From NCBI RefSeq assembly GCF_902652985.1, contig NC_047020.1, positions 12,648,001 to 12,712,000 of the forward strand: DNA of 64,000 bases. The letters are read 5' to 3'. The notes under the pieces were generated by a model. That model saw only the letters and a list, made by a program, of their open reading frames with translations, did no database searches and had not been told where the DNA came from. The stretch is from Pecten maximus (lineage: Eukaryota). Positions 3,462 to 14,501 of the stretch are shown here, piece after piece (the stretch's first letter is position 1; each line of letters begins with the position of its first letter). The position numbers and the translations under genes were made by a program.

Positions 3462-6386
3462 TTACTGGTTTGGATTTTGGTACTGAAGCGGGTTATAGTT
3501 CTGGTGCATATACAGGTAAGGAAATGGTGGAACAGACCATTGCCCTGGAGTTTTATTGTCGTACTGTCTCTGGTTAGAGTCATGGACTTGTTGCTGCATG
3601 TCTGTGAAGGTGTGGTCAGAAGTTTGGCCATCACGACTGTCTTTTCTCCGCAGATCAGAATAACTATCAGGCCCAGCACCAGACATATAAGCCACAGACT
3701 GGTGAGACAAATGGGTAACCTGATCAATGCTAGCTGTGGTTGGATCTACTGTATAGGGAAGATGGGGCAGTTGCATTGTTGAATGACTTTGCCCTTGGGA
3801 CTGTCCTTGATTCTGAGCTTGAACTTGCTCCTGATGATGCATGGTACTGACTGCTTGGAGAAGAGCTTGTTTACGTAGATATTCGGCAGTCGCCGCTGCC
3901 ATTTGTTCATCTTGTGGGGAAAGGCCATGAGCTGAGGCAGCTGTCACATGATCGAGTGTCCTCGACAAGGGTCGTACTGTAGTCACAGGTGGTAGTGGCT
4001 GCTGTTGCTGCTGATCTTGGTGAGACATATAATTGTCAACTGGTTCTGATGTTGAATCAACACTATCTAAATGATGATCTATTTTTTCTGAACTTTGTCC
4101 AGTTAGATGTTCACTAGAAGCACCAATGATTCGTTCTACTATGTTACTGAACACTGCCCTGTTGTCAGTCTCGGGACTCGACATTATTTCTGATGTCTGA
4201 CTTTCCGTATTGTTGGAAATTGTTTGTTCATTAGACAAGTCTTTATCCTGGTTTTCTAAATCTGTTGATGGATCTGGCCCACTAGTCATAATAGGCCTGC
4301 CTCCTCTTCTAACTGTACCATCAAAACTCTCAATAAAATAACCTTCCTTTCCCTTCAGATCTGATATAACACCGTCTCTCCATTTCTTTGGATCTCTCTT
4401 GTGGACCAAGATCATATGACGTCTAATAATGGAAGTATCACTGAATTTTCTTGCACAGAGGCCACAAGAAAATGGTTTATCACCATTGTGAATTCGTTCA
4501 TGTCTATACAGAGCCTGCTTTTGTGTGAAACCTTTACCACACACTCCACAGAGATGATCTTTCCCTCCTTTGTGTACTTTCATATGAATGGCAAGGGCTG
4601 AAGATTGTCGGAATAGTTTGTCGCATACCTCACATTTAAATCTTTTTACCTCATCATGTGTATATTTGTGTTCTTTTAGAGACTTTTCATAGGCAAATGA
4701 CTTGTTACACACCTTACAAATATGAGGTCGCAGCCCCATATGTACATTTGCATGTTGAATGTATGAGTTTTTCTGGGTGAAACTTTTGCCACATGTTGGA
4801 CACAAAAAGCTTTTCCTGATGCCCATGTGTTCAGCTTTGATATGGTAGTTCAATACATATTTAGTACTGAACCTTTTATCACATTGATCACATGGGTATT
4901 CAGGCTTTTCATAATCATCTTCGTGAATTTTCTTGTGTTTGATGAATGTCCGAAGAGATTTATACATTTTACCACAGGTGTCACAGCAATGTTGAGGTTC
5001 AACATGGGTCATCACATGTCGTTTCAAATCCTTATGAATACCAAATGTTCTATCACAGTGTTCACACTTCCATTTTTTCATTCTGTGGTTCCTTCTGTAG
5101 TGTTCACCTAGTTGACTTCTTTTTTTTGCCACATAGGAACAAGAAGGACAAGGATAATCACATGCTTTCCCTACATTTTGGGACCTTTTCCCTCTGGATT
5201 TCTTAATTTGTCCTGCTCTAGCTTTCCTTGTTTGTCTCCTACCAGCTTTCCTTTCAAATTTTATTTTTAAACCTTCAGCTTTGTCATTGAAGGTTTTATC
5301 AGGAAGCCATTCTTGATCGTTGGCATCCTGCTTTTCCTCATCTTTTTCTTCATCTTCACCATCCTCTTCATCATCTACATCAAATTCAGGCTCCTGCACA
5401 CCATCTGCCTCATCATCTACTTCTTCAGATATCTCCACCGTTTCTATTGGACCTTCATCCCCTTCCTCTTGTTTGATTTCTACAGATTCTGTACACATTT
5501 TTATATCTAATTTTGGACTTGTTTTGAGGAGTTTCACTGGAACACCTTTCCTTTTATGTTTCTTTTTCGGTGGTGATAATTTACTTATTTTCTTTGCTAT
5601 ATTGTCAACACGTAGAGTTTGTTTAGTTTTTGTTCTAGTAACAGTGTGCTCTGGTTGACTAAACTCAGATTTGATGTCTTTGTTTCTATTGACTACTTCA
5701 CGATTAGCTTGTTGTTTCTTATGCACATAATTTATAGAAGTGTCCTCCTCGTCTAAGTCAAGCATAATATTGTCTTTATCATCCTCCTCACTACTATTTG
5801 CGACGTTTTCTGTGGTTGAAATACTGTCATCCTCCCCTTCCTCTTCTTCTGTCTCTCCATCATACATTGGATCTGTATCAGACATCTTCTCGTTGTCTGT
5901 ATTTCGATCAGACATAAAGTCTTTAGATGAAAATGTTAATACGATTGGTTCTGGAACCTTACTCTTCACTGGGGTAAGTTTCGACGTGAGTTCTCGGTTT
6001 TCCTGTTGTTTAGCCATGTATATTGGTGCTGGTTGTTTATTTATGCTGTTTGTATGAACACTTTCGGGAGTGTGATTCGAGAAAGTCGACTGTACAATAC
6101 TGTCGTCGTAATCTAGAGAAGTGGATACCGGCGGAATACCATAAACGGAATTGAGTAGCTCTATCAAAAGTCTATATGCAGACATCATTGAGTTCCAATC
6201 CCCCGCCATGCTAAATTTACCACCGTCTTCATATAGGTCAACGCCTGCTTCCCGACTGATTTCTGTAAGCTGAACATTCGATAATGGAGTAGAAACATCC
6301 TCGAAATTCTTCAAGAAATCTGACGAAAGTTCGGCAGATGTATGTGCAAATACTTTCTTCATTACTCTATGCATCGACATATCCAT
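3462..6386 (-). CDS. C2H2 zinc-finger transcription factor (9 tandem fingers, acidic N-terminal half, Q/S-rich C-terminus), single coding exon
   Basis: Uninterrupted 974-aa ORF. Nine CxxC-x12-HxxxH/HxxxxH units run from YPCPSCSYVAKKRSQLGEHYRRNH to FSCGLCARKFSDTSIIRRHMILVH, with Kruppel-type linkers HMGLRPH and HNGDKPF. Basic NLS-like stretch PPKKKHKRK. Confidence 0.95.
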   Translation of the reverse strand: MDMSMHRVMKKVFAHTSAELSSDFLKNFEDVSTPLSNVQLTEISREAGVDLYEDGGKFSMAGDWNSMMSAYRLLIELLNSVYGIPPVSTSLDYDDSIVQSTFSNHTPESVHTNSINKQPAPIYMAKQQENRELTSKLTPVKSKVPEPIVLTFSSKDFMSDRNTDNEKMSDTDPMYDGETEEEEGEDDSISTTENVANSSEEDDKDNIMLDLDEEDTSINYVHKKQQANREVVNRNKDIKSEFSQPEHTVTRTKTKQTLRVDNIAKKISKLSPPKKKHKRKGVPVKLLKTSPKLDIKMCTESVEIKQEEGDEGPIETVEISEEVDDEADGVQEPEFDVDDEEDGEDEEKDEEKQDANDQEWLPDKTFNDKAEGLKIKFERKAGRRQTRKARAGQIKKSRGKRSQNVGKACDYPCPSCSYVAKKRSQLGEHYRRNHRMKKWKCEHCDRTFGIHKDLKRHVMTHVEPQHCCDTCGKMYKSLRTFIKHKKIHEDDYEKPEYPCDQCDKRFSTKYVLNYHIKAEHMGIRKSFLCPTCGKSFTQKNSYIQHANVHMGLRPHICKVCNKSFAYEKSLKEHKYTHDEVKRFKCEVCDKLFRQSSALAIHMKVHKGGKDHLCGVCGKGFTQKQALYRHERIHNGDKPFSCGLCARKFSDTSIIRRHMILVHKRDPKKWRDGVISDLKGKEGYFIESFDGTVRRGGRPIMTSGPDPSTDLENQDKDLSNEQTISNNTESQTSEIMSSPETDNRAVFSNIVERIIGASSEHLTGQSSEKIDHHLDSVDSTSEPVDNYMSHQDQQQQQPLPPVTTVRPLSRTLDHVTAASAHGLSPQDEQMAAATAEYLRKQALLQAVSTMHHQEQVQAQNQGQSQGQSHSTMQLPHLPYTVDPTTASIDQVTHLSHQSVAYMSGAGPDSYSDLRRKDSRDGQTSDHTFTDMQQQVHDSNQRQYDNKTPGQWSVPPFPYLYMHQNYNPLQYQNPNQ

Positions 6387-6454
6387 GTTGACTTATATAT
6401 GCATTATTGTATTACATTGAACAGTTGACTTTTTACACTATTTTCTTTAGAAAT

Positions 6455-8724: not shown

Positions 8725-8943
8725 TTTGTTTGTTTTTGTTTAACGTCCTATTAACAGCCAGGGTCATTTAAGGACGTGCCAGGTTTTGGAGGTGGAGGAA
8801 AGCCGGAGTACCCGGAGAAAAAACCACCGGCCTACGGTCAGTACCTGGCAACTGCCCCACGTAGGTTTCGAACTCGCAACCCAGAGATGGAGGGCTAGTG
8901 TTAAAGTGTCGGGACACCTTAACCACTCGGCCACCGCGGCCCC
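8725..8943 (-). mobile_element. Full-length tRNA-derived V-domain SINE with 13-bp TSD
   Basis: Minus strand has A box TGGCCGAGTGG, B box GTTCGAAAC, V-domain-like TTTTCTCCGGGTACTCCGGCTTTCCTCC and an (AAAC)n tail. Perfect TSD CATGCAGCTAATG at 8712-8724 and 8944-8956. Confidence 0.9.
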
Positions 8944-9305: not shown

Positions 9306-9459
9306 TTTTTACAATCTCACGTCCTTTTAAGTCAGAGTGAGAATGTGAGACGGTCCTTACCGGTCACCATAGATAGGGTGGTAGTTTTGTTTAGTACAAA
9401 TGAAATTTGTTAGGTATTCTCCCTTGTTTTAGTAATATAATATAATGTTTTGTTTCTAG

Positions 9460-9503
9460 CAGAGACTTGTATATCTGATATATATCTGATATACAAGTCT
9501 CTA
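9460..9503. mobile_element. Putative DNA-transposon (P-like) excision footprint 1
   Basis: CAGAGACTTGTATATC (16 bp) + 11-nt filler + TGATATACAAGTCTCTA (17 bp), flanked by TTTCTAG at 9453-9459 and 9504-9510. Confidence 0.65.
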
Positions 9504-11880
9504 TTTCTAGTAATAACGACTAATTACGAGAACGATTGTTTTATTGTATTTCTATTTGGTCCTATCCGGCTTCCGTATAGTGGTACCATATTTTTCAATG
9601 GCTTTTAAACTTGGAAGTATATTGATCAGTACATCAGCGAGGGTTGCATGGTTTCTCGTGAGGTTGGGTCGTCATCACGACATCAGGGGTAATTACGGAA
9701 CTGACGTCACTGTTCCAGCCAGACTTGGTTAGTCCAATCTATCAGAGTCACTTAATTCCCTTCGTTTCACGTAAGATAGAATTAATGGCCTATAGGTGTA
9801 GGCGTCACCATTTCCTCTCAAATTTGTAACAGATACAGTGCATACAGTCAAAATGACTTGGTGCAATTTCGTTTTTATAGATATGAGAGATATAGGCCTA
9901 AGTAGATAAGTATACATGTGATAATAATGGTTTACACTATATATCAATAAAGTAAACAAAAACAGGTTTATAACAGTTTATTCGACAAAAATATATCAGC
10001 ATTTTTAAACACCGTAAAAACAAAGAATAAAAGGATGAACAAGCCCGTGAGTTCAATACATTGGCTTTGATAAAAATGGAGTACATGCTATGTGACAATG
10101 TCAGCATTTGAAAGGAATTACAAGTATTTTAGATTGGCTGTGAGTTAATATGAAATACTTCTGACTGCTGTATGGCGTTAATGTGCAGGAAGAATTCTGT
10201 CACACCTCAAACTGTAGGCATTTGAATGAAAAATAAGTTTGAAATGTTGCACACCGATGATGGAGACATCCGTGAAATCTGTGTTTTAACCGTTTACACA
10301 GATATCCATTGGGTGTGTGTTTTAACCGTTGCATTTATTCATCTAGCCTAGCCCGAATTTCCTCCGGGTCCAGTCCATACCAGACTTTCCACATTTAAAA
10401 AAAAAAACTAGTCTACATTTGTTCTGAACTGGATTTTATCATCAGTATCAGGGATATCATGGTACAACATTAGGGTGGCATGTTGAGGTAAGTATACCCG
10501 TCTCATATAGTATGTACAATACCATATGTGTCTTAGGTATGTACACGTGTAAGGCGTGCCAAAAAAAGTGTGTTGGGTTTTAAACCATACAGATACACGA
10601 TGTGACGTTGCTGCCTGAAGAACGGACTTCAAATTATAAAAATAATGCATTACCGGACAACAATATTAATCCCGAATTCATCATCTATAAATTACAAATT
10701 TCAATAAATAAATCGCAGATTTAATGAATGTGAAAAATACACAAATTTAATTTACAATTACTAAATTAAGTCACTTTCTATTATCAAGATAGTGTAACAT
10801 GGAATGAGGTTAAATATATAAATACAGCTGCTATTGGTTAATCAATACATCCATATAGTTGAAATATAATAAATTATTTTAAAATTTAGCTAAAAATATA
10901 TATCAGATTTTATATCCAAAAATATTCCTAGATCTGTATTTCTATATAACACATTTGCCCTTTGAATATAAATTTCCGTATCATAATTTTGATAGATTTT
11001 AAAATAAATCATTATACTTCATTCGTCTCTTTAAATTCTAAAATAATTTATTATATTTCATAGACTCATAGTTTCTGATTAAATTAAGTTAAACGGATCA
11101 AACAGTCTATTGATCACAGTTCTAAGTAATCAGATTATGACAGGTTTGCATATTGATTCTTAAGACATGAAATGTCTTAATGAAGAGAAGATTGAGAACC
11201 TTAAAAAAACAAGGACCCTTCACATCTTATAGTGAATCTCTGTACCTCAACGGGATCACAGCAGGGACAGACAATAAAATAGCATCAACATATCATTTAA
11301 TATTGTTTGATGCCCAATTACACGAATCAAAAGAAAAAACGTAACTGGGCAGAGTTGTCTCCCCTTGTTTCTTTATCAGTTTTTTTAAAACAGAGTTCGG
11401 ACTAAGTCTTAAGTACTATAAAAGATTTTCCTGGAGAATGGCTTGATATTAAAACAACATTTGAGGAATTTTTTCTGTCCCTGTCATGATAGGATTCGTT
11501 TGCATACCTGAATACACATGTATATAAATACCATAAATTATTGTTTACAACATTTGGAATAAATAACTTTTAAAATCAAATAAAAATACATACATTTACA
11601 TGCAAGTAAAATATCCGTAGTTAACAAACATAAAGATAACCCTTACTGTCTTTTTACCAGAAAAAAAGTTCAATATGTACACAACGAATGGGTTATAGAT
11701 GTATTATATACATTAAATTTGCTTCTTAAATAGATATTAAATAATTATAGTTTAAAACTGATACCACATCAAATAAATAATAATTTAAAAATAAAAATCG
11801 ACCTCCTTTCAGTTCAAAATGATATTTGAGAACTACATTAGTGACGACGTCACGATACATGTAGATATGATAGAACGCAA

Positions 11881-11904
11881 AATGATGATGATGATGGTGG
11901 TGGT

Positions 11905-11939
<35 letters not shown>

Positions 11940-11965
11940 TGATGATGATGATGATGATGATGACG
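11881..11965. repeat. Compound trinucleotide microsatellite (GAT)n(GGT)n(GAC)n(GAT)n, probably in the 3' UTR of the SOCS-box gene
   Basis: Directly visible, ~340 bp downstream of the stop codon. Confidence 0.9.
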
Positions 11966-12301
11966 AATTTAGTTATAATATAAATACTGGCAATTATTGC
12001 TATCTGCTGCTGTTTGCATATGCGTTTTGCATAGAATAGATGGACCATTGTTTAGTTCTGGTGTAAGGTCAGCTGCTTAAAGAATATTAAAAAATAAATA
12101 GTTTTCAAGATATCACTTGTTTACAATATTGACACATGTTTATGCTAGATGAGTTTTATTTCTATGTGATACAAATAACATAGTATCTGATAAAATCCAT
12201 ATAAACATATTTTGAATGAAATAATTTAAATTTGATTTGTGAAAAATCAAAGGCTGTATAAAACATATATTTAACTCGTCTTGGTTAAGTATCTTATGTT
12301 C

Positions 12302-13327
12302 CTAATCAATCTGTAGGTCTAGATACTGCTTCATTACAGAAGGGACAGGCAGGCTGGAAATAGCCACAGGATTGTGACCAATACTCTCCCGAATGGTCAA
12401 TCGACAGAGATGTTGTAAATTTCTCACACCCGAGAATTTCTCTGTGTCGATCATTGCCGCGAGACGTGGATGAAGATTATACACTTTCTTTTTCTCTGTC
12501 AGCTCCTCGTCTATTTGTGTTTCAAAGTGTTTATTGTGTGAAAATGAAATATTTTTGACAGCCCTGAAAATCAAATGTAAACAAAGCATGCCCTTTGATT
12601 CCTCTGCCGTTAGTGCTGCCCGTGTTTCTACGTCTACGGAACTGTTTTTGAACAAGATCACACTATTCAGACCGGAGATGAGAGTGTCGATGGGGTCCAA
12701 GGGAGGATCTTTATCAATGGTTGCGCAAAAAGGGTCAGCGCCATATCTCAGTAGTACCAGTATGAGGGACGGTTCTCTCCTCATACAGGCAGCGATAAGG
12801 GGTGTAAAACTGTCGCAGTTGTCAAATTCAGTGTTAATTACACGTTTGCCATTTTTCGTTAGGTATTCCAACTCACAGACATTGTGCAAATAAAACTCAA
12901 AAGCATCTGTCGCTTCTTTATGAAAGATTCTTGTTGAAAATCGTGGATACAACGTGTGAATGTTGATGTTTACGTTTGACTTAATCACGTGACCAGGAAG
13001 AAGAATGCTAAAAATAGGTTGAAGGCCACCCTCACAGTGCAGAATTTCGTTCAGTATATCTGCTGCAGCACATCGAAGAGCTTGCCTGTTTTCAAAACAA
13101 AGCCGCAGAGCAGAATAAAGACAATGGTGCTCGACACACAGGTGTTCTCGCTCTCGTTTTGTCTTGTGAGAACATACAACTTCAGTGATCGACAAGCGCA
13201 GTCGGAACAAGGCCTTTTGTGATCGCAAGGGTTTCCCCGGTTTCCACAGTAAAATAAATTTCTCGGCTGTCACTTGCGAGGCTGACTTGTGATTGGATCT
13301 TCGAGATACTAAGTCAACGAGACCCAT
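12302..13327 (-). CDS. Ankyrin repeat and SOCS box protein (ASB17-like architecture; putative Elongin BC-Cul5 substrate receptor), single coding exon
   Basis: 341-aa ORF with one ankyrin repeat (FTPLIAACMRREPSLILVLLRYGADP). C-terminal SOCS box has BC box RNLQHLCRLTIR and Cul5 box LPVP followed by MKQYL. Confidence 0.88.
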   Translation of the reverse strand: MGLVDLVSRRSNHKSASQVTAEKFILLWKPGKPLRSQKALFRLRLSITEVVCSHKTKREREHLCVEHHCLYSALRLCFENRQALRCAAADILNEILHCEGGLQPIFSILLPGHVIKSNVNINIHTLYPRFSTRIFHKEATDAFEFYLHNVCELEYLTKNGKRVINTEFDNCDSFTPLIAACMRREPSLILVLLRYGADPFCATIDKDPPLDPIDTLISGLNSVILFKNSSVDVETRAALTAEESKGMLCLHLIFRAVKNISFSHNKHFETQIDEELTEKKKVYNLHPRLAAMIDTEKFSGVRNLQHLCRLTIRESIGHNPVAISSLPVPSVMKQYLDLQID

Positions 13328-13599
13328 TTTAAAAGGAAAGATCAGGATTTTAGCAATAAAACATTATTTTCGCCTGGAGGAATGGAAATTTCTACAGTAC
13401 ACAGCGTCCTTGATTCTAAATATGGCAACAAACTCGACTGCCGTCTGCTGTCGTTCCTTTTTCGCTCTATCACACAACATAGGAAATATTTATTTATGGT
13501 CATCGGTCTGTCCAAAAATAGTTGTCGTGTACTCACTTCTGAAGTTTTTCTTATTTCTTCGTGTCTCCTATCATTGGATATATAGTTTTTGTCCGGACG

Positions 13600-13690
13600 A
13601 TGGACTCTCAGATGACGTTTGTTTTGATACGTTACACGCTCAAGCATGTTGTCTGCGCATGCTCAAGGGGAATCCCGAACTACAGGAAAT
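13600..13690 (-). promoter_or_regulatory. Candidate promoter of the SOCS-box gene
   Basis: NRF1-like TGCGCATGCTCA (~13654-13665) and CRE half-site TGACGT (~13613), about 300 bp upstream of the ATG. Confidence 0.4.
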
Positions 13691-13769
13691 AGACTTACAC
13701 AAGTCCATGTGTACAAATATACGTAACAGTAATTGATTAATTACCAACTATGTTCAACCTCCATACAAT

Positions 13770-13807
13770 CAGAGACTTGTATATCACATGTGATATACAA
13801 GTCTCTG
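13770..13807. mobile_element. Putative DNA-transposon (P-like) excision footprint 2
   Basis: Perfect palindrome CAGAGACTTGTATATCA-CATG-TGATATACAAGTCTCTG, flanked by ATACAAT at 13763-13769 and 13808-13814. Confidence 0.7.
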
Positions 13808-14501
13808 ATACAATCAATATTTGAGTGATAGTTGGACATTGAGAGAGGACACAATAAAAAACAACTAAATCTTAAATCAGACTTAATATAGTTTAGCCGA
13901 AATTCGCTGAGTCTTGGTAACTGCATGGAAAGTATTTTTATGAACATTTTCCCATAGTTATCGAAATGACATGCTAATTAAGCAAATTATCAATATATAT
14001 TTTTAAAGCTGTTGTTGTAATTTGTTTCAATTACTATTTGCTTTGAATTATGACAATAAAAATGTGTTTAAATCAACTAAAATGTATTCGGTGTTTTACG
14101 TAGGTTTTAATTTATGCAAACAGAGTTAATGGAATGATGTTAGCTGCCTTTTAATTAAGTTTTCTTCTGAAACTGTAGGGTTTGTTCATACATCGATCTA
14201 TTTTCAAGCAATGAAGCTATTAAAGAGATATAAACGAAGTGGTTTTATTTATACGAGGTTTAGGGTTTGATAAAACATGTTATAATTAATCCTAAATGCG
14301 TCGTTTTGTACTTTTATGAAATAAATTATTTTAGGTAGGGCTAGGGTTAAAGGTTATGGTAAGTGTGCAATATTCATTACTTAATTAATTGTGTGTAGAT
14401 CTTGATTAATTCCATAGGATGTATTATACCTATCCCTAGTCAGATATCCTTCGACTCTCCACTGCATATTAACGTAGTCAGACCTTCCTCTGACTCTCCA
14501 C

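Follow-up and report, generated by a model that had tools for sequence, protein, structure and literature searches.

Two palindromes in a Pecten maximus contig as probable excision scars of a P-superfamily transposon, with a putative sequence-set stagger and a candidate two-protein transposase

A 64-kb stretch of the scallop Pecten maximus genome (contig NC_047020.1, positions 12,648,001 to 12,712,000; this whole stretch of 64,000 nucleotides is called the window, and coordinates count from its first letter) contains two short palindromes that we interpret as excision scars of a P-superfamily transposon. Site 1 is a 44-bp sequence at 9460..9503, with no strand assigned, composed of a 16-nt left arm and a 17-nt right arm, and its palindrome is imperfect only in the last base, which is A for G. 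It is enclosed by two forward-strand copies of the 7-bp repeat TTTCTAG (9453..9459 and 9504..9510), its target-site duplication (TSD). Site 2 is a perfect 38-bp palindrome at 13770-13807 and is enclosed on the forward strand by the 7-bp repeat ATACAAT (13763..13769 and 13808..13814). The left arm of this second scar (13770..13788, forward strand) corresponds to bases 1-19 of the 25-bp terminal inverted repeat (TIR) of a two-gene P element described below, and the right arm (13789..13807, reverse strand) consists of bases 1-19 of the same TIR, placed tip-to-tip with no filler. A check of the window confirmed the positions and direct repeats reported by the first-pass annotation, a reading of the letters alone. 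The same annotation described the central CATG of site 2 as junction filler between 17-nt arms, and this proved wrong; CATG consists of TIR bases, and the arms are 19 nt long. Sites 1 and 2 are the only TSD-flanked CA..TG palindromes of 20-61 bp in the window. When up to three mismatches were allowed, the 16-mer arm matched the window 4 times against a shuffle mean of 0.64, a count reached in 0/100 shuffles, and the hairpin z-scores of the palindromes were -7.2 and -9.1.

The junctions of the two scars are dissimilar. A 23+23-2 decomposition of scar 1 regenerates all 44 bases; each arm was lengthened with bases copied from the opposite arm and the products were then rejoined over a TA overlap, which upholds the earlier suggestion of a templated filler at this site. 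TIR bases 18-19 are CA at site 2 and GA at site 1, and the sites derive from different subfamilies. The proposal that the two scars are independent events is supported. Relatives of scar 1 occur as 33-bp scars among the genome places with paired 14-nt arms. Comparison of the ends assigns scar 1 to a putative sister subfamily of the two-gene P element, and a short end at locus L258, which has no partner end within 10 kb, is its candidate parent end.

The parent element was sought by comparing the P-type GTP-binding domain with the genome (G000, 918 Mb), which gave 13 matches. The element at G000:C1296:19996-29122 measures 9,127 bp and carries the 25-bp TIR CAGAGACTTGTATATCACAGAGACT and the 7-bp TSD GTATAAC; two close paralogs of this site are empty, one of them with a single exact GTATAAC. 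A second copy at G000:C4:52489941-52500252 (10,312 bp) shares these ends, is flanked by a 7-bp TSD of its own and contains a 973-codon frame, and a transposase-bearing element of 13,671 bp on C5 is bounded by the end type of a related family, termed family C. Full elements of 9-14 kb with scar-type termini, 7-bp TSDs and a P-type transposase (C1296, C4 and C5) are therefore present. The related elements of family C are non-autonomous and 0.7-1.35 kb long, and those of family A are likewise non-autonomous, their two ends differing in length by two bases. The flanks of one family A element (G000:C1:22635-33119; L077, L078) are more readily explained by an 8-bp duplication that has one mismatch than by a duplication of 7 bp. 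At G000:C6:47239642-47245622 (L097, L098), two inverted P transposase genes are separated by about 5 kb, and one of them adjoins a long coding-like tandem repeat.

Similar remnants are found in the genome by the hundreds. The 16-mer arm has 856 exact matches, against 0 for a reversed control, and both 14-nt arms lie within 30 bases of one another at 114 places. The intact ends of the site-2 family number 12, versus 169 strand-matches of its scars. To tabulate this family, the first 100 of 169 rows were reduced to 80 places and then, after collapsing copies within carrier repeats, to 72 events; an event entered this list only if one of its arms was 18 nt or longer. For family A, the first 100 of 316 matches were used and gave a table of 95 events, and the family C table contains 28 places from 582 strand-matches, with one nested place counted twice. 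A looser census pattern gave 4,203 matches against 415 in its control, and its listing was swamped by satellite and was not used as a scar count. A 7-bp TSD, exact or with one mismatch, flanks 69/72 events of the site-2 family, 78/95 of family A and 27/28 of family C. Within the site-2 family, 64 of the 69 duplications are exact, three events have none and 0/72 have an 8-bp duplication; an exact 8-bp duplication accompanies 2/95 family A scars. Candidate empty paralogs were recovered for 17 scar sites among the fetched loci, some exact over 37 bases and some trivial because of tandem repeats. From sequence, it is very likely that the remnants are excision scars of the P superfamily, and both window palindromes correspond to the outer 16-19 bases of both ends of such a transposon, likely left by excision in the germ line.

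The depth of the cut can be estimated from the lengths of the arms. The longest arm in the site-2 family is 19 nt in 66/72 events, 18 in 2, 20 in 3, 21 in 1 and at least 22 in 0. The number of inserted bases required to explain the junctions of this family falls from 213 at an assumed 17-nt tail to 85 at 19 nt and then reaches a plateau. Among 46 short scars that were not selected for arm length, the 27-mer occurs 33 times and the 25-mer 3 times. Since a 19-nt tail joined over 3 nt of microhomology gives the 27-mer, whereas the 25-mer is the product favoured by a 17-nt tail, these counts support a tail of 19 nt. The 72 events comprise 31 microhomology joins, 14 blunt joins (8 of them 19+19) and 27 joins with insertions. 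Of these insertions, 18 begin with A, the next templated base after the microhomology, and several continue as AG, AGT or AGTC; templated extension from the tip of an arm indicates that the tails are 3'. Distinct junctions number 33 among the 72 events and 54 among the 95 family A events. The arm ceilings and the templated extension of the tips point to a long staggered cut after which tails of the TIR stay behind at the donor site, and the cut behind site 2 was very probably made at 19 nt. The first-pass annotation had assumed the same 17-nt geometry as in Drosophila, and this assumption is not supported, with the site-2 family stopping at 19 nt and its sister ends at 16-18.

The sister families suggest how these different stops may arise. 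The commonest scar of family A is a 33-mer (28/95 events); here long-end bases 18-19 and short-end bases 15-16 can pair with an A:A mismatch between them. At the centre of the 33-bp scars the base is that of the long end in 30, that of the short end in 7, C in 3 and G in 1, as expected if only the tip of the long end paired. In the informative family A scars of other lengths, the short arm stops at 17 in 6/9, of which one is a blunt 17+19 join; it stops at 16 in 2 and reaches 21 in one self-copied scar. The arms of family C reach 18 in 15/28, stop at 16 in 10 and pass beyond 18 in 1, which carries a terminal duplication. Every end that was examined holds an inner copy of terminal bases 3-7, either GAGAY or GGGAT, and this inner box is absent from all tabulated scars. 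Ends that start with CAGGGAC have the inner box GGGAT in 2/2 end types. With G:T pairs allowed, the best fold-back register of 11 ends is 19 and 19 for P, 17 and 19 for A, 17 for the L258 end, 18, 16 and 18 for C, 18 for a family D variant, and 18 and 16 for E. The observed arms stop at this register in the P, A and B ends, in the long and short ends of C and in one family E scar, with family D ambiguous. As the sister ends stop just before the inner copy of bases 3-7, we infer that fold-back pairing places the nick. The end sequences thus make it likely that the stagger is set by the sequence of each end and not by a fixed count.

The transposase belongs to the P type throughout its catalytic core. 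The Pfam domains that pass the cut-off are PF21787, PF21788 and PF21789 (RNaseH_N, GBD and RNaseH_C), and a PDB sequence search with the protein gave Drosophila P transposase (6p5a) as the sole match. The same protein was the top match of the fold search, with Z 33.6, a root-mean-square deviation (rmsd) of 4.6 over 426 residues and E 2e-20, the match spanning fly residues 128-566 only. The DDE triad is invariant in 32/32 aligned homologs, and the positions that we equated with the GTP contacts given in PMC7776569 are conserved in 29-32 of the 32. A P-type GTP-binding insertion is accordingly recognisable in the sequence, and the use of GTP is predicted from the conserved contact positions. The closest database protein is 98% identical and is labelled Pecten maximus. 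Named homologs come from mussels, oyster, scallops, abalones, limpet, periwinkle, a brittle star and an acorn worm, and the protein family is large, with 1,784 representatives at E 0.001. The parent element, the TSDs and this catalytic core together sustain the first-pass proposal of P-superfamily scars in a non-insect genome.

That proposal also named a THAP9-type enzyme with a THAP domain, and this part was not supported. Several database homologs are automatically labelled THAP9. The THAP Pfam domain gave no match in 3 of our own frames or in the 5 homologs scanned, 0/54 homologs carry a THAP annotation, and the fold search listed no THAP fold for the N-terminal region, only weak RWD-like matches with Z of about 6. 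In the transposase at L100:4214-6916 (reverse strand), residues 116-275 form a confidently modelled beta-rich domain in the place of THAP, with weak RWD-like matches. The beta-rich N-terminal domain is followed by four invariant cysteines, in a pattern other than that of THAP, and by a coiled coil. At the other end of the protein, the motif of the catalytic glutamate is present in 36/54 homologs, and all 36 end 61-70 residues past it, so the chain, as read from these sequences, stops before the C-terminal domain (CTD) of the fly enzyme.

The missing domain may be supplied by the second gene of the element. This gene is convergent with the transposase gene in 6/6 regions tested and is partly deleted in the C1296 copy. 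Its profile matched none of the 54 transposase homologs, and its relatives show a weak C2H2 finger match. The helical part of the protein was identified by the fold search alone; neither Pfam nor the atlas nor a PDB sequence search was informative about it. The modelled homolog of the second gene ranked the Drosophila CTD chain 1 of 48,161, with Z 8.6, rmsd 3.3, 118/118 residues aligned and 21% identity, a match that we consider good and not overwhelming. Because the two genes share an element and their predicted products have complementary domains, the two proteins may act together. It is probable from these models that the enzyme consists of two proteins, a catalytic chain without THAP or CTD and a zinc-finger protein that carries the CTD.

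A mechanism consistent with these observations can be outlined by analogy with Drosophila. The catalytic chain and the zinc-finger/CTD protein would act jointly as the transposase, nicking one strand at the tip of the element and the other 16-19 nt inside, which would leave 3' tails on the chromosome. The inner nick would fall just 5' of the inner copy of bases 3-7. The freed 5' end would thereby be able to pair with the transferred strand's 3' tail, and the length of the stagger would follow the sequence of each end. The two single-stranded donor tails would then be end-joined between the 7-bp target duplication. Blunt joining of the tails would give the 19+19 product seen at site 2, and joining over 1-3 nt of microhomology would give the 27-, 29-, 31- and 33-bp classes. 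Rounds of annealing and copying, which resemble polymerase-theta joining, could produce the junction of site 1. Taken as a whole, the account of P transposon excision scars with a sequence-set inner nick and a two-protein enzyme has a high probability in our judgement.

The most durable alternative also accepts excision scars and gives each transposase lineage its own fixed stagger, the inner-box match being incidental or a consequence of protein recognition. At least two distinct autonomous elements have their own TIR types, in which case different enzymes made the different scar families, and the site-2 family by itself shows a single length of 19. Against a stagger fixed by lineage stand the family A element, which has both 17- and 19-type ends and asymmetric scars (6/9 stopping at 17, and centre bases of 30 to 7), and the occurrence of both 16 and 18 in family C, and the tip and the inner box change jointly in the CAGGGAC ends. 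We consider this explanation unlikely.

A further alternative retains the 17-nt cut of Drosophila and has bases 18-19 added during repair from the other tail or from the sister chromatid. A 17-nt tail that anneals by its last A could template CAAG and so explain some junctions, and wild-type fly repair products mostly begin with sister synthesis, according to the portion of PMC2895639 considered here. The added bases are nevertheless TIR bases 18-19 and are family-specific (CA, GG and GA), the eight 19+19 joins would need both tails to be extended by exactly CA, and the GA of family C has no template in the opposite tail. The 25-mer favoured by such a cut is rare (3 versus 33 27-mers), and copying from the sister would not halt sharply at two bases, at least 22 nt being reached in 0/72. 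These results leave repair synthesis from a conserved 17-nt cut very improbable.

Equally hard to credit is the idea that the palindromes are tiny MITEs (miniature transposable elements with inverted repeats), that is, mobile units of 25-45 bp, or microhomology deletions of an uncut element. Recurrent junctions (the 27-mer in 15/72 and the family A 33-mer in 28/95) would suit it, empty sites show insertion and not its mode, and no allele pair of element and scar was seen when 37 element flanks were compared with scar flanks; yet the 72 events contain 33 junctions with each class predicted by tail microhomology, simple deletion does not make blunt or templated joins, the arm ceiling is sharp to one base, and the units would have to do without the inner box and all subterminal sequence that real elements keep. 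A hAT origin is contradicted by the fold search (Hermes at E 4e-5 versus P at 2e-20) and by the 7-bp TSDs, and one invariant tiny MITE by the 33 junctions in 72 events, the 54 in 95 and the absent inner box; the first-pass annotation had named both as possibilities that would overturn its reading, and neither was found.

Several observations weigh against the proposed account of scars with a sequence-set nick and a two-protein enzyme. The selection for an arm of at least 18 nt leaves site-2-family scars with both arms of 17 nt or less uncounted, and four events of this family match the TIR to 20-21, for which overlap, templating or mutation are possible and not unique explanations. In family A, the long end is matched to 20 by two 34-mers and to 21 by one 35-mer, the short end is matched to 21-22 in two scars (22 in a 33-bp scar), and the dominant 33-mer cannot alone separate 17 from 19 at the short end. 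The family C table covers only 28 places of 582 strand-matches, and families D and E offer few or ambiguous scars. The inner box resembles the tip itself, and recognition by the protein, with no pairing involved, could also give rise to the rule. A comparison of 37 element flanks with all scar flanks yielded no site at which both an intact element and a scar occur, and the 30 loci compared for the C1296 flank held no scar, with 3 of its close paralogs occupied and 2 empty. For the enzyme, Foldseek placed the same CTD chain at rank 12 (E 0.63, probability 0.97), a Z of 8.6 is middling for a helical domain, and a THAP exon may lie upstream of the long frame.

Comparison with known systems, limited to the cited portions of each source, places the scallop elements within the P superfamily and sets them apart in several features. 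The Drosophila melanogaster P element has the same RNase H core with a GTP-binding insertion, CA...TG ends and TIR tails at the donor site (PMC7776569, PMC2895639). Its inner TIR stretch is able to pair with the tip (PMC7776569), and blunt, microhomology and templated-insertion junctions are all recorded in a fly assay (PMC2895639 Table 1). The fly element differs in its 17-nt tails and 8-bp TSD, in contrast to 16-19 nt by end type and a 7-bp TSD in the scallop, and in carrying THAP and CTD in one chain, whereas in the scallop no THAP was detected and the CTD appears to reside on a separate convergent gene. Unlike the Drosophila P case, the scallop elements are 9-14 kb long and their scars are kept by the hundreds in a natural genome. 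Galileo, a Drosophila element of the P superfamily, shares the 7-bp TSD (occasionally 8), and its target GTANTAC is palindromic like that of the scallop elements, whose consensus is weaker; it differs in its very long foldback TIRs and its THAP domain (PMC4168063), as the scallop elements have a second gene, TIRs that measure about 25 bp and no THAP that could be detected. Vertebrate THAP9 and zebrafish Pdre2 likewise represent P-type transposases outside insects, although Pdre2 has 13-bp TIRs, 8-bp TSDs and a THAP-bearing single-chain enzyme (PMC10983969), while 0/54 homologs of the transposase described here are THAP-annotated. A literature search found no title or abstract start on a variable P stagger, two-gene P elements or mollusc P scars; it did not cover Repbase and Dfam, which may describe them.

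In its cited portion, PMC7776569 treats the order and mechanism of P-element strand cleavage as not known and the origin of the folded-back end structure as unclear. The scallop offers natural ends of differing spacing together with their scars, from which it is predicted that the inner nick tracks the inner repeat. If this is true, the fly with its 17-nt cut would represent a single case under a wider rule, and the scallop scars would form a natural saturation map of the cut and of germ-line end joining. In the fly structure, the C-terminal domain of P transposase contacts the looped single strand. A CTD carried by a protein of its own would amount to a new architecture, and it would offer a simple system in which to probe the role of this domain. 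Hundreds of germ-line breaks whose ends are known are preserved by the scars in this mollusc. As short repeats, the scars could escape annotation or be mislabelled as MITEs. Excision scars of the P superfamily are known, and what we infer to be new is the sequence-set stagger and the two-protein enzyme. We lean somewhat towards a widespread marine-invertebrate branch of P elements, in molluscs, a brittle star and an acorn worm, that would combine a two-protein THAP-less transposase, its CTD encoded by a separate zinc-finger gene, with a fold-back-set stagger of 16-19 nt.

The target motif of the scars is palindromic, reading R-T-W-W-W-A-Y with T/A three bases outside. A P-type preference for promoters had been expected, and the data lend it weak support. 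The median observed/expected CpG ratio, a weak proxy, is modestly higher near 190 scars (0.88 within 500 bp versus 0.78 at 1,000-1,450 bp, p = 0.001), but in raw counts none of 7 promoter motifs is clearly enriched near them. Both window scars had also been placed about 100 bp from promoter-like motif clusters, and this is correct for site 2, with its cluster at 13654-13676, but not for site 1, where TGACGTCA at 9702 and CCAAT at 9734 lie about 200 bp away. Scar 2 is about 440 bp upstream of a SOCS-box frame of 353 codons (12302..13363, reverse strand), measured from the first ATG, with the box at the end of the frame. A long C2H2 zinc-finger frame (3462-6392, reverse strand) is a further coding neighbour of the scars.

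In other individuals, contigs from samples S1, S2 and S3 cover site 1, and those from S1 and S2 reach into the site-2 palindrome from either side. One S3 contig agrees with the window up to 13739, a point 30 bp short of scar 2, and then diverges, which may reflect another allele. A very high-copy short repeat occupies 8734-8943 of the window, with a depth orders of magnitude over single copy in all four runs. Elsewhere in the genome, further scar families (with ends CAGAGACC and CAGGGAC) were encountered by chance within 1.5 kb of targeted scars (L205, L213, L027, L071, L304 and others), and scars may be clustered or far more numerous than counted. A minisatellite at G000:C1:5144757-5148767 (L111-L116) is made of units that resemble a P terminus, suggesting that a TIR or scar seeded the tandem repeat. 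Family A scars or end 16-mers also occur in tandem arrays at G000:C3:42458821-42459158 (L276) and G000:C6:46604397-46604867, the latter with a period of 65 bp. A family C scar is nested just inside the end of a family A element at L261:8777-9840, and a family C copy on C5, near 3905519-3906876, has a duplicated 14-nt tip.

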